Virus record (IMG/VR): IMGVR_UViG_3300028840_006907
Location: 405,618 to 469,617 of that record
Source: a virus
Direction: 5' to 3' (one strand)
DNA: 64,000 nucleotides
In this document: one piece after another, positions 59,993 through 62,688 of the stretch
How positions within the stretch are numbered: position 1 is the stretch's first letter
How the letters are laid out: every line of letters starts with the position of its first letter
The notes under the pieces: generated by a model
What the model saw: only the letters and a program-made list of their open reading frames with translations
Databases searched by the model: none
What the model was told of the DNA's origin: nothing
Translations under genes and position numbers: made by a program

Positions 59993-60160
59993 TTACCTTT
60001 TATGATATGATCGCCTGGGTTTCCTTAATACACATCTGGCTTCTTTAAAATCATCACATTCTTCATTACAATCTTCTTTTTTACTGTGTCTCGGATAATG
60101 GGGACAATTTTTTTTATTACATTCTTTGATGTGAGAGCATTGGTATTCAGTCCGTACCAT
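59993..60160 (-). CDS. mini Cys-rich protein (55 aa, below track cut-off)
   Basis: Translated by eye: MVRTEYQCSHIKECNKKNCPHY...; GGAGG RBS about 6 nt upstream. Confidence 0.35.
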   Translation of the reverse strand: MVRTEYQCSHIKECNKKNCPHYPRHSKKEDCNEECDDFKEARCVLRKPRRSYHKR

Positions 60161-60173
60161 ATCCTACCTCCAA

Positions 60174-60386
60174 TTATTCCCATACTGATGCAGCATCAGC
60201 CAGTCCATCAGGATATCCTTCCTCGTCACTATTTGATTCATCTTTTTGAGTGTACCGGCATTTCGGAAATCTGGTACATCCGAGAAAAGGAGATCCATCA
60301 ATCTTATTTTTTCGTCTTATTAATTTTCCGTTACAGCCAGCTTCGGGACAGTTCCAAACTGTGATATCATCATCATTAATCGCCAT
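60174..60386 (-). CDS. stand-alone topoisomerase-I-type C4 zinc-ribbon protein (70 aa)
   Basis: CPEAGCNGKLIRRKNKIDGSPFLGCTRFPKCRYT matches the zf-C4_Topoisom pattern. Confidence 0.55.
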   Translation of the reverse strand: MAINDDDITVWNCPEAGCNGKLIRRKNKIDGSPFLGCTRFPKCRYTQKDESNSDEEGYPDGLADAASVWE

Positions 60387-60897
60387 TTTCTTTACCTTTC
60401 AAATGTTTTTCGATGTATTCCTTTTTCTTATCGATTATTTTAGTGTTTTCGCCAATATAATCAGATAATTCCTCCCGTATATCTTCTTCAGAGTCACCAC
60501 ATGAAAGAAGGATTTTACCTTCCCAGCCCGTTAGATCTTTAAGATCTTGATATTCTATTTTAAATGGTATCCATTCTATAAGTTTATTTGTATGGGATTC
60601 ATTTATACCTATTCCTAGTGTTTTTTCTCCTCTAATAGTAAAAGAGAATTTTAATATTTCACCTATTCTGTCTATATATTTTATTTTTCCAAGAGAGGCT
60701 TGTTTTATTTCTCTTTTTATAGCTTTTTTAGTTTTACCGTACATAATGACAATGCTACCATTCCAACCAGTTAGTATTTTGAGATCTGGAAGTTTTACTA
60801 GGATAGGCATGCCCTTTTTTAATTTCTCGATATTCATATTAGTTAATCCTATACCTAATAATTTTCCATCTTTGATTTCTGCAGAATATTTAACCAT
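60376..60897 (-). CDS. hypothetical protein with internal tandem duplication (173 aa)
   Basis: Two halves align: LGIGLTNMNIEKL...LTGWNGSIVIMYG and LGIGINESHTNKL...LTGWEGKILLSCG. Confidence 0.5.
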   Translation of the reverse strand: MVKYSAEIKDGKLLGIGLTNMNIEKLKKGMPILVKLPDLKILTGWNGSIVIMYGKTKKAIKREIKQASLGKIKYIDRIGEILKFSFTIRGEKTLGIGINESHTNKLIEWIPFKIEYQDLKDLTGWEGKILLSCGDSEEDIREELSDYIGENTKIIDKKKEYIEKHLKGKENGD

Positions 60898-60906
60898 TTC
60901 TCATCC

Positions 60907-61119
60907 TTATATTAGAGCCCTTCGAATTTTATTTGAACAACTTTTTACTTTTTGCTCGTATTTTCGTAATGTCTCCTCAGCTTTTAAGATTCTTTTCTCA
61001 AGCCAATAAGTATACTGAATCAAGTCACCGCCTCTTACTTTTCTTTCGAATTCTTTTCTTATTCTGTTTACTTTTTCGTAATTATAATTCCTGTTGTTTA
61101 ATCGAGTTGCTGTTTGCAA
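60907..61119 (-). CDS. hypothetical basic protein (70 aa)
   Basis: Track ORF. Confidence 0.4.
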   Translation of the reverse strand: MQTATRLNNRNYNYEKVNRIRKEFERKVRGGDLIQYTYWLEKRILKAEETLRKYEQKVKSCSNKIRRALI

Positions 61120-61120
61120 T

Positions 61121-61366
61121 TTATTTCTCTTCTCCTTCGTTTATTTCATCCCATGTCATATCACAATGAATACAATTTCCTCCATCGGATTCAAATTCAT
61201 GTTTATGGGATTTCTTTTTAAGATTATTAAAATCACTGGTAATTTCACAATGGACTCCATGCTTAGTAAAAAAGTTTACAGTTACTTCTTCAAATTTTTC
61301 TTTTGAAACTGTATTATCTCCTTTTAATATCCTTGCCATTATTTCTCCAGGTGTCATTTCCTCCAT
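61121..61366 (-). CDS. hypothetical Cys/His-containing protein (81 aa)
   Basis: HCEIT...CIHCD. Confidence 0.4.
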   Translation of the reverse strand: MEEMTPGEIMARILKGDNTVSKEKFEEVTVNFFTKHGVHCEITSDFNNLKKKSHKHEFESDGGNCIHCDMTWDEINEGEEK

Positions 61367-61381
61367 AATATCTTTCCCCTT

Positions 61382-61732
61382 TTAATAGCCTGTTATTGCT
61401 GGCCAGTGACTTTGAAAAACTTTTCCACCATTTTTATATATTTGTTTCTTTAATTCCAACCATTCGGGTCTCCATCGGGTGATAGCCCGTCCACTATAAT
61501 AATCGAAATTTGTATCAACTCTTTCTATGGCATTCTTTCGATCCATTTTCTCGCATATCATAGTAAACTCTATTAATACTTCCCGAGCTTCGATTGCTTT
61601 TTCTATCTCACTTCTATCAAGTAATTCTTCGAAGAACCAGTCCATGAGCCATTCTAGGACTATGGGCTTTTCCTTAGTGGGGTTTTTATTCCACTGTTTT
61701 AATTCCGATAAACTTTCTATTTTGATTGCCAT
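61382..61732 (-). CDS. hypothetical protein (116 aa)
   Basis: Track ORF. Confidence 0.45.
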   Translation of the reverse strand: MAIKIESLSELKQWNKNPTKEKPIVLEWLMDWFFEELLDRSEIEKAIEAREVLIEFTMICEKMDRKNAIERVDTNFDYYSGRAITRWRPEWLELKKQIYKNGGKVFQSHWPAITGY

Positions 61733-61738
61733 TTGATG

Positions 61739-61870
61739 TTAATTCTTCGTCTCTATTTTAGAATTGCTAATATCTCTTGGTAAAAATTTCATAGTGACAG
61801 CACAATTGGGACATATCTTTTGCCTTATATAGCATGGATCTGGATCCTTATTAACTATCTTAACAGCCAT
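61739..61870 (-). CDS. mini zinc-ribbon protein (43 aa, below track cut-off)
   Basis: Translated by eye: MAVKIVNKDPDPCYIRQKICPNCAVTMKFLPRDISNSK... Confidence 0.35.
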   Translation of the reverse strand: MAVKIVNKDPDPCYIRQKICPNCAVTMKFLPRDISNSKIETKN

Positions 61871-62124
61871 AGCTATTATTCTTTCTATTTTTGAATCTGG
61901 AATTGTCTTTTTTCTTCCTATAGTATAGAATTATTTCAACGATTATACCCATAACAAATGGTATTATTGTGTATAAAAAAGATAATGAAAAATTTGGATT
62001 ATAGCTAAATCGAATCCCCATTAAAAGCGCTGTACAAAAAAATCCGAAAAAAATCCAGAAAGCTCCTTTTGTTGAAAGGATTATACAATTATTACAACGT
62101 TCCCAGAAATGTGCGTCGTTTTAT

Positions 62125-62376
62125 TTATATAATTTCACCGCAAATTTGACAAGATACGCCATCTGACATCTCAACACAATCATGTGGAGTAAATGACGCA
62201 CTTTCTGTGTTGTTTGTTGATTGCGTTGTTACATTGTAAAACTTCTCTATAGTACCACTATTCTCATATGCCCTGAATAGTTTTTCCATAGTCACACACA
62301 GTTCTTTCAACGATTCATTACTACCATCAAATGAAATTTCTATTTTTTTCACAATCTCTCCTTTTAAATTAAGCAA
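62125..62376 (-). CDS. hypothetical Cys-containing protein (83 aa)
   Basis: Track ORF; CQICGE at C-terminus. Confidence 0.4.
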   Translation of the reverse strand: MLNLKGEIVKKIEISFDGSNESLKELCVTMEKLFRAYENSGTIEKFYNVTTQSTNNTESASFTPHDCVEMSDGVSCQICGEII

Positions 62377-62527
62377 TTTTCAAACAACTAGGGCATATTA
62401 TATATGATCCACCTTTAGATTTTGTTATATCTTTTGATATAAATTCCATATTAGAACCACAATTGGGACATATTTGGTATAAAATATGGGATGAATCAGG
62501 TTCTGAATGAATTAATTTAATAGCCAT
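62369..62527 (-). CDS. mini zinc-ribbon protein (52 aa, below track cut-off), paralogue of 61739..61870
   Basis: Translated by eye: MAIKLIHSEPDSSHILYQICPNCGSNMEFISKDITKSK...CPSC. Confidence 0.35.
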   Translation of the reverse strand: MAIKLIHSEPDSSHILYQICPNCGSNMEFISKDITKSKGGSYIICPSCLKIA

Positions 62528-62688
62528 TATATTTCCATTTCTACATCAATTTTTGTGATAATGAAGATGTCATCAAAAGATAAGGGCAATGTAGAACATA
62601 TTATTTCGAACTTACAGTCATCACAAGTTGTCCTATTATTACATTCATCATAAATTTCACCAAATGTGTAATCTTTAAGTTTTTTCAT
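62527..62688 (-). CDS. mini hypothetical protein (53 aa, below track cut-off)
   Basis: Translated by eye: MKKLKDYTFGEIYDECNNRTTCDDCKF...; ATGA overlap with the upstream stop. Confidence 0.3.
   Translation of the reverse strand: MKKLKDYTFGEIYDECNNRTTCDDCKFEIICSTLPLSFDDIFIITKIDVEMEI

Follow-up and report, generated by a model that had tools for sequence, protein, structure and literature searches.

The short open reading frames clustered at 58.5-63.1 kb of the 64-kb stretch of DNA analysed here (the window), together with genes G and E elsewhere in it, are mostly genuine small Cys-rich genes that are tightly packed and whose products probably bind zinc. The window comes from a ~469-kb (469,021 bp; ERZ27256798 k141_1708087) uncultivated phage contig with matches to phage DNA polymerase, helicase and tail-fibre proteins; among catalogued phages, its DNA polymerase finds its best match (28% identity) in an uncultured phage of 485 kb, not in phage G. 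We consider the following explanation probable: A, C, D, E and G (Table 1) are genuine coding genes for domains of 46-65 residues, the fold of which is most likely held together by a metal, zinc, through clustered Cys and His residues. The cluster is part of a long co-directional, nearly gap-free array of small accessory genes, with only three gaps of more than 100 nt in an 18-kb minus-strand block, and small Cys-rich gene arrays of this kind are an ordinary feature of large phages. Two of the mini-ORFs listed in the first-pass annotation, A and B, carry no annotation in public data; of these, A is clearly conserved.

Table 1. Small genes and mini-ORFs of the window, with coding posterior and Shine-Dalgarno (SD) duplex energy
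Feature	Position	Strand	Length (aa)	Coding posterior	SD duplex (kcal/mol)	Description
Gene G	34057..34254	+	65			Canonical representative of the B/C family, full length; outside the earlier list
Mini-gene E	39210..39350	+	46	1.00	-9.3 (GGAGG)	Acidic; CxxC-x19-CxxC; called publicly
Three neighbouring genes	58548..59551	-	115, 81, 135			Called publicly
Mini-gene A	59993..60160	-	55	0.43	-10.7 (GGAGG)	Basic, pI 9.2
Top1-type ribbon	60174..60386	-	70			Stand-alone, predicted C4 zinc-ribbon mini-protein; acidic
Mini-ORF B	61739..61870	-	43	0.97	-0.9	Truncated paralogue of C and G
Mini-ORF F	61860..62021	-	53 (from ATG)	0.08		Possible, unproven
75-aa gene	62125..62352	-	75			GTG start behind AAAGGAGAG; called publicly
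Mini-gene C	62369..62527	-	52	0.95	-3.3	Predicted zinc ribbon, CPNC...CPSC; diverged paralogue of G; called publicly
Mini-gene D	62527..62688	-	53	0.999	-3.8	Acidic, pI 4.2; Cx5Cx2Cx5C; ORFan; called publicly
67-aa gene	62887..63090	-	67			Four Cys clustered C-terminally; upstream edge of the Cys-rich block; called publicly

Coding evidence and gene junctions

A direct check of the sequence found every named mini-ORF in its place with the peptide quoted for it. The first-pass annotation described these frames as missed by the ORF track, which needs to be qualified. The absence of C, D and E from that track is only an artefact of its 60-aa cut-off, and gene callers have placed all three in public data; the only ones that a collection of 15 billion proteins lacks are A and B, along with F. 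A 70-aa gene with a TTG start nearby is uncalled as well.

Could the mini-ORFs be chance open frames that fill intergenic gaps in AT-rich DNA? Short ORFs are common in such sequence, and the window holds 119 of 35-60 aa that lie within long genes but in a wrong frame; moreover, base composition alone predicts a Cys codon frequency of 2.3%. Under a 3-periodic Markov model trained on the long genes of the window, however, none of the 119 nested ORFs, taken as the null set, reaches a posterior of 0.5, compared with 0.95-1.00 for B, C, D and E. Alignments among B, C and G lie 15-19 sd above shuffles, C, D, E and G are called by independent gene callers, and A, which scores low by the model, is kept as a gene because it is conserved (dN/dS 0.10). 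For A, C, D, E and G the chance-frame reading is effectively refuted, and for the mini-ORFs as a group we give it almost no credence.

Scoring of ribosome-binding sites as SD duplex energies gave medians of -5.6 kcal/mol for curated genes and -1.5 kcal/mol for random positions. The GGAGG site proposed for A is confirmed and E has one too, while none stands before D, for which it had also been proposed; B has no site, and about a quarter of the accepted genes here lack a clear one. The junctions fit the proposal that the minis are translationally coupled, in that stop and start codons on the same strand overlap or abut. The ATG of D and that of E each overlap the stop of the gene upstream (ATGA), and the ATG of C overlaps the stop of D (TAATG). 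Upstream of A, the preceding stop lies 13 nt away with the GGAGG in front of the start, and the next ATG follows 3 nt past the end of A; gaps around A and the 75-aa gene measure 3-16 nt. The ATG of B falls within the end of the F ORF. This geometry suggests coupling, and the genes of the array are probably expressed from polycistronic mRNA, on which initiation would occur at an SD site (A and E) or by reinitiation at the overlapping stop and start codons (C, D and E).

Conservation in related genomes divides the mini-genes. A has a relative with 78% identity and the same gene order, whereas searches of IMG/VR, INPHARED and a 5.8-billion-protein index returned no orthologue of C, D, E or the neighbouring 173-aa and 116-aa genes. 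Likewise, known phages yielded no homologue of D and no match to E, and D lacks a paralogue in the window. The case for C, D and E as genes is thus built on coding statistics, on agreement among gene callers and on the geometry of the junctions. All public copies of the genome are 100% identical, so that they carry no population signal for dN/dS.

Copies of PHROG 2834 and the status of B and F

B and C are paralogues, as had been proposed. They align with 45% identity over 38 residues, 19.5 sd above shuffles and at a score that 0 of 5000 shuffles reached, and tblastn matches B with C at E 1e-10 and with G at E 3e-9. The full-length copy, G, matches phrog_2834 over residues 3-65 (E 4.1e-13), and has 34 metagenomic homologues at 48-73% identity and matches in 112 phage records, those of RsoM2USA and T4-like phages among them, with more than 100 homologues from cultured phages; no record, as listed, assigns a function. 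Its AF2 model (pLDDT 87) has five beta strands. Members of the family in Ralstonia phage RsoM2USA_168, Yersinia phage JC221_091, Karamvirus, and RB16/RB43-like and phiPsa374-like phages share with G (profile E 4e-13) a length of 56-68 aa, the N-terminal MVKII..P and two CxxC knuckles. One Cys is invariant across the homologues of G and the other three occur in at least 90% of members, so that the predicted ligands are conserved. PHROG 2834 is a widespread predicted zinc ribbon of T4-like and jumbo phages with no assigned function.

C and B depart from G in different ways. C has lost a 9-residue loop and has a shortened C-terminus, and an HMM of 36 G homologues finds it at E 9.5e-12; B matches the HMM of G homologues with E 1.7e-11 over profile positions 1-37 of 65 only, and keeps the N-terminal strand and first CxxC while the whole second half is missing. 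Neither C nor B matches the PHROG profile itself at E <= 0.01. Both knuckles of the family (C19/C22 and C53/C56 in G numbering) are present in G and C, whereas B ends before the second. Thus, C, like E and G, has the CxxC...CxxC arrangement typical of zinc ribbons, and B is a half ribbon: a fragment of the PHROG 2834 family and not a full member. All three proteins begin with an M-[VA]-[KVI]-[IV] motif, in a family whose lengths run to about 56-68 aa, and the DNA similarity between C and B begins exactly at the ATG and spans only 114 nt. The window holds three copies, and 20 kb of flanking genome adds none; three copies within one 64-kb stretch are undescribed for the family. It is probable that C and B arose through duplication of a PHROG 2834-type zinc ribbon, with G as the conserved copy, and that C then diverged with both knuckles kept while B lost its C-terminal half. 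An extension of this idea, in which F and B duplicate the D-C pair, was rejected, as the 86-codon frame of F does not resemble D (p = 0.34).

Generic zinc-ribbon Pfam models match C only weakly (E about 3e-3, below cut-offs), and E reaches E 5e-4 with Zn_ribbon_8 and 7e-4 with the FmdB type, both also below cut-offs. Against Zn_ribbon_8, Zn_Ribbon_TF, Zn_ribbon_3, FmdB and YgiT, the two proteins score at best 17-20 bits where the cut-offs are 20-34, and scores are sub-threshold for the FmdB/Zn_ribbon_8, YgiT, LysW and RpoP/RPC12-type small zinc ribbons in general; therefore, no membership is established and no function is transferable. The resemblance of C and E to curated families lies in CxxC spacing only, and the layout of E is best described as zinc-ribbon-like.

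B and F together occupy a 254-nt gap, and one reading is that neither is functional, i.e., that they are leftovers of a truncated PHROG 2834 duplicate in a regulatory or spacer gap. We put this only slightly short of an even chance. B lacks the second CPxC knuckle and an SD site, is called in no public copy of the genome, and may be a decaying copy: its dN/dS relative to C is 0.66 over 38 codons (8.2 synonymous differences at 21.8 sites and 25.8 non-synonymous at 92.2), counts so small that the value is not distinguishable from neutral. Weighing against decay, the frame of B is intact over exactly the 38 homologous codons with a high posterior, it begins at the family's own N-terminal Met and retains family-conserved residues, and about a quarter of the accepted genes likewise have no clear SD site. 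F, which encodes one hydrophobic helix and a Lys/Arg-rich tail, has a low coding posterior, no homologue and no SD site ahead of its ATG, and has never been called in public data. Its frame, on the other hand, runs through the whole gap without a stop, over 86 codons (p = 0.004, dinucleotide shuffles), and a possible start codon is the in-frame ATT at 62054, 8 nt behind an AAGGAG (SD duplex -7.9 kcal/mol). An RNA gene was also considered for the gap and rejected, as it matches no Rfam family or tRNA, of which none were found in the whole window, and folds no better than shuffles (z = 0.47).

Mini-gene A and the adjoining Top1-type ribbon

A is a real, conserved gene that is unannotated on this genome. 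It has never been called on any copy of the genome, and its exact sequence is not in the 15-billion-protein collection. A 55-aa homologue (P0037) has 78% identity (E 7e-21) and is carried by a metagenome contig from SRR31655991, L007, that shares the gene order around A; a second (P0038) has 43% identity (E 4e-5). Eight Cys and His residues, C8, C14, C19, H21, H25, C31, C35 and C43, are invariant in the three sequences, and dN/dS is 0.10 at a dS of 1.35. No homologue was found in IMG/VR or JGI contigs, and A matches no curated family in Pfam, PHROG or NCBIfam. A is a separate conserved C6H2 mini-protein, distinct from the B/C/G family. It overlaps another ORF, at 60025-60183, that the Markov model slightly favoured (0.89 vs 0.43). 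We discarded this ORF, as no SD site precedes it and L007 has a stop within its frame, whereas the frame of A is conserved.

Directly upstream of A, in a position kept in the closest relative, is the 70-aa Top1-type ribbon. It scores 37.8 bits with PF01396 (Zn_ribbon_Top1) against a gathering cut-off of 32 (E 1.6e-9, residues 12-52), has the four Cys of that family, which describes the C4 zinc finger of bacterial topoisomerase I, and carries the same assignment in public pre-computed annotation. Unlike its counterpart in topoisomerase I, it is not a topoisomerase domain, but a free-standing protein with an acidic tail ending in GLADAASVWE. Its dN/dS relative to L007 is 0.11, and six JGI contigs, of which one measures 416 kb, carry homologues with 50-57% identity; none of the six loci has a homologue of A, B, C or D.

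A bolder reading joins these observations: A would found an undescribed C6H2 metal-binding family and form a two-gene module with the Top1-type ribbon, and B would complete an intermolecular zinc site. We think this combination quite improbable. If it were true, A and the ribbon would be a basic/acidic pair, targeting for example host topoisomerase or DNA, and half-ribbon B would be kept for completing a zinc site with C or G and thereby regulating the full-length paralogues.

A also illustrates that gene callers and length cut-offs lose real conserved genes of less than 60 aa in very large phages, as it is missing from the 15-billion-protein collection despite its low dN/dS. The analysis adds one small conserved C6H2 family, and illustrates the in-genome duplication and possible decay of the widespread PHROG 2834 predicted zinc ribbon.

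Cysteine enrichment and possible roles

The claim of a dense Cys-rich field is borne out. In the 17 genes at 58.5-63.1 kb, Cys makes up 4.0% of residues; the share is 1.7% in the remaining small genes and 1.0% in large genes (Mann-Whitney p = 0.0025). Additional contributors are the genes at 58548..59551, which belong to no Pfam, PHROG or NCBIfam family and include 6 Cys in the 115-aa product and 10 in the 135-aa product, and the 75-aa gene between C and the F/B gap, with 4 Cys including a C-terminal CxxC. The clustered Cys of A, C, D, E and G suggest that these proteins bind zinc.

Most likely the proteins are small binding modules: basic ones (A) may bind nucleic acid, and acidic ones (D, E and the Top1-type ribbon) may bind protein or mimic nucleic acid, with replication and transcription components of host or phage as candidate targets. 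The first-pass annotation likened the field to early host-takeover genes, a putative role on which neither promoter motifs nor homologues bear. An alternative, to which we assign somewhat less than an even chance, is that the genes are real but serve at any stage as accessory cofactors of DNA or RNA metabolism, transcription factors, structural DNA-binding proteins or anti-defence proteins. The block contains a predicted DNA-binding ribbon of the Top1 type and has an N6/N4 DNA methyltransferase, a SpoVG-like protein and an AAA ATPase encoded upstream of it, and homologues of G in another large phage contig sit among nucleotide-metabolism genes. Moreover, the jumbo-phage literature suggests that expanded stand-alone Zn ribbons may be transcription factors or may bind DNA (PMC7824862). 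No finding separates these roles, however: no functional homologue of the mini-genes was found, structure searches gave no significant match or functional lead, and the gaps of the window hold no shared motif and no promoter or temporal-class signal, sigma-70-like promoter matches being rarer than in shuffles (33 vs 44.6).

Bacillus megaphage G offers a precedent, in which a stand-alone Zn ribbon has undergone lineage-specific expansion and numbers some 35 copies (Iyer et al. 2021, PMC7824862). Since stand-alone zinc-ribbon minis and jumbo-phage expansions are thus already documented, the current view of phage biology is unchanged. Both phages have very large genomes with several stand-alone Zn-ribbon minis that probably stem from in-genome duplication; only three copies turned up here, in the window and its 20 kb of flanks, and the likeness is one of expansion pattern.

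A dense field of small Cys-rich genes

The window is phage DNA with a G+C content of about 33%, and it encodes a family-A DNA polymerase, a helicase and tail-fibre-like proteins. Because proteins identical to those of the window are found on metagenome contigs of 469,021, 469,260 and 469,617 bp, it comes from a very large uncultivated phage. A megablast of the window against 50,697 catalogued phages matched nothing, and the closest DNA polymerase among those phages, at 28% identity, belongs to an uncultured 485-kb phage. The mini-gene cluster lies within a minus-strand block that runs from 45.7 kb to beyond 64 kb and is almost gap-free, only three gaps exceeding 100 nt; its neighbours include a DNA methyltransferase, a SpoVG-like protein, an AAA protein and the Top1-type ribbon.

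Features discussed, with coding posteriors, anti-Shine-Dalgarno (SD) duplex energies and Nei-Gojobori dN/dS against L007, the metagenome contig of the closest relative
Feature	Position	Strand	Length	Coding posterior	SD duplex (kcal/mol)	dN/dS
A	59993-60160	-	55 aa	0.43	-10.7	0.10
B	61739-61870	-	43 aa	0.97	-0.9	
C	62369-62527	-	52 aa	0.95	-3.3	
D	62527-62688	-	53 aa	0.999	-3.8	
E	39210-39350	+	46 aa	1.00	-9.3	
F	61860-62021	-	53 aa	0.08		
G	34057-34254	+	65 aa			
TTG-start ORF	60907-61119	-	70 aa	1.00	-8.8	
Top1-type ribbon	60174-60386	-	70 aa			0.11
66-aa gene			66 aa			0.20
173-aa gene	60376-60897	-	173 aa			0.26
75-aa gene	62125-62352	-	75 aa			
ORF overlapping A	60025-60183					
Gene after B	61382-61732	-				
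Largest gap in block	61871-62124	-	254 nt			
NADAR-domain gene	34276-35112	+				
813-aa gene	35187-37628	+	813 aa			
245-aa gene	38082-38819	+	245 aa			
Ribbon homologue, JGI contig L010	8007-8201					
CxxC minis on L017 (genome beyond the window's right end)	512-685, 5543-5734, 8992-9162					

The first-pass annotation listed mini-ORFs A to E, all of which are present with the peptides quoted for them. As read from the sequence, the ATG of D overlaps the stop of the preceding gene (ATGA), that of C overlaps the stop of D (TAATG), and that of E overlaps an upstream stop (ATGA) with GGAGG ahead; the ATG of B lies inside the 3' end of a further ORF, F. The GGAGG ribosome-binding site claimed for A is found 6 nt before its start, and 3 nt separate the end of A from the next start. 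These ORFs had been described as missed by the ORF track. Gene calls on the public source contigs cover C, D, E, G and the 75-aa gene and lack A, B, F and the TTG-start ORF, the exact sequences of which are also absent from a 15-billion-protein collection. Thus, C, D and E were omitted through a length threshold, an artefact, and A and B are truly missing from the annotation.

Coding signal was assessed with a 3-periodic second-order Markov model trained on the window's 38 long ORFs. Posteriors exceeded 0.9 in 94% of 45-codon pieces of real genes under leave-one-out training, and stayed at or below 0.5 for all 119 ORFs of 35-60 aa nested in wrong frames; median SD duplex energies were -5.6 kcal/mol for accepted genes and -1.5 kcal/mol for random positions. 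The TTG-start ORF fits exactly in the gap between two genes and has a strong SD site (GAAGGAGAAGAG). Since it also has a maximal coding posterior, yet is uncalled and absent from the collection, it is probably another real, unannotated gene.

Across 84 curated genes, Cys makes up 1.0% of proteins of at least 140 aa, 1.7% of small proteins outside the block and 4.0% of the products of the 17 genes of 58.5-63.1 kb (Mann-Whitney p = 0.0025), eight of which have at least four Cys. Base composition alone predicts 2.3%, and in the 10 kb upstream of the window the value is down to 2.0%, although further CxxC minis are present there. The enrichment is therefore real and local, which gives statistical support to the dense field of Cys-rich small proteins that had been proposed. 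The L017 minis comprise one of 56 aa with a double CxxC and a long Asp/Ser acidic tail, one of 57 aa with five Cys and one of 63 aa with one CxxC; all are publicly called, and none belongs to the B/C/G family.

Gene A and its locus

A is a real, conserved gene that is unannotated. Searching 1.84 billion representative proteins with phmmer gave two homologues, one of 55 aa with 78% identity end to end (P0037; E 7e-21) and one of 81 aa with 43% identity (P0038; E 4e-5). The former is encoded on the 1-kb contig L007, where homologues of the 173-aa gene, the Top1-type ribbon, A and the 66-aa gene follow the same order as in the window. The dN/dS of A (dS 1.35) is the lowest of the four, so A is the most constrained gene at the locus. 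An overlapping ORF, slightly favoured by the composition model, was rejected; it is without a ribosome-binding site and stop-interrupted in the relative. Residues C8, C14, C19, H21, H25, C31, C35 and C43 are invariant in all three sequences, and as potential ligands these eight would suffice for two metal sites. With a pI of 9.2, the protein is strongly basic; it matches no curated family, and a weak AF2 model (pLDDT 68) yielded no structural neighbours.

The Top1-type ribbon (PF01396) is a stand-alone zinc-ribbon mini-protein that ends in GLADAASVWE. Six JGI metagenome contigs (L010-L015), one of them 416 kb long, carry it at 50-57% identity, and its neighbours differ in both contexts examined (L010; L014/L015). 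It looks like a mobile mini-gene common to very large phages. The 173-aa protein looks like an internal duplication, with an (L)TGW[NE]G motif in each half; both halves align to the partial homologue on L007.

A duplicated and possibly decaying family

B and C had been called paralogues, and they indeed share 45% identity over 38 residues (E 1e-10, 19.5 sd above shuffles). A third paralogue, G, was found by tblastn and matches the profile of PHROG 2834 (E 4e-13), a phage zinc-ribbon family with no assigned function. For G, there are 34 metagenomic homologues (48-73% identity) and others in more than 100 cultured phages, including Ralstonia jumbo phage RsoM2USA, Karamvirus, RB16/RB43-like, phiPsa374-like and Erwinia phages; none of the records listed assigns a function, and nearly all read "hypothetical protein". 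An HMM of the G homologues, built with B and C left out, recovers C at 9.5e-12 and B at 1.7e-11. By these alignments, B and C derive from PHROG 2834.

Both knuckles persist in C, the loop of which is 9 residues shorter. In B, the alignment covers no more than profile positions 1-37 of 65, and the second CPxC, conserved in at least 90% of the family, is missing. The nucleotide match between B and C begins at the ATG and extends over exactly 114 nt (70% identity), with no similarity upstream, and their dN/dS over 38 codons is 0.66, indistinguishable from neutral on these counts. B is thus a truncated duplicate, and its function is doubtful, with odds roughly even. B and the gene after it share a reading frame, with only TAA CAT CAA between them, and the latter's N-terminus (MAIKI-) resembles those of C (MAIKL-) and B (MAVKI-); this may be coincidence (1 in 3 for the frame) or a relic of an earlier rearrangement.

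F, which like B may be non-functional, is a hydrophobic helix with a basic tail. One frame stays open through all 86 codons of the largest gap (p = 0.004), and the ATT at 62054, in frame and preceded by AAGGAG at 8 nt, may serve F as a non-canonical start. The gap also holds a small hairpin followed by seven T; it has no Rfam match, and its fold is unremarkable.

D and E are acidic (pI 4.2 and 4.3), with four Cys each and strong coding scores. No homologues were found for either in catalogued phages and no paralogues in the window; E resembles FmdB/Zn_ribbon_8-type ribbons only below threshold.

Possible roles and plus-strand observations

The small genes are real, tightly packed and co-directional, and several carry conserved sets of Cys/His ligands. 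Such clusters are predicted to bind zinc, stabilising domains otherwise too small to fold, and the products may be small binding modules for nucleic acids or proteins. A and E would be translated by SD-dependent initiation, and C, D and E by reinitiation at overlapping stops. Early host takeover had been proposed for this region; the block's neighbours would equally suit a role in DNA/RNA metabolism or regulation. Sigma-70-like sites are rarer than in shuffles, and no motif common to the gaps was found. The original observation is confirmed and its interpretation partly supported. In megaphage G, a stand-alone Zn ribbon has expanded to about 35 copies, which were suggested to be transcription factors or DNA-binding proteins (PMC7824862). 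Clusters of small Cys-rich genes are an ordinary feature of large phage genomes; what goes beyond this is the proof that A, though unannotated, is real and conserved, the tie of B and C to PHROG 2834, a family represented once more at 34 kb, and the signs that B and F may be non-functional.

After E, the longest ORF begins at 39328 (+), overlapping E by 23 nt without a ribosome-binding site; the public callers' ATG at 39352 (+), immediately past E's stop, gives a 101-aa protein and is the more plausible start. Near E, the 245-aa protein has many CxxC pairs in its N-terminal 130 residues and no Pfam hits on record. The 813-aa protein has pre-computed Pfam matches to MVP_shoulder (major vault protein shoulder) and, faintly, Vault_3, an odd domain for a phage. 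Directly after G, the NADAR-domain protein contains three tandem copies of an RRNNTMNNEN-like decapeptide, a repeat detected at the DNA level as a blastn self-match.
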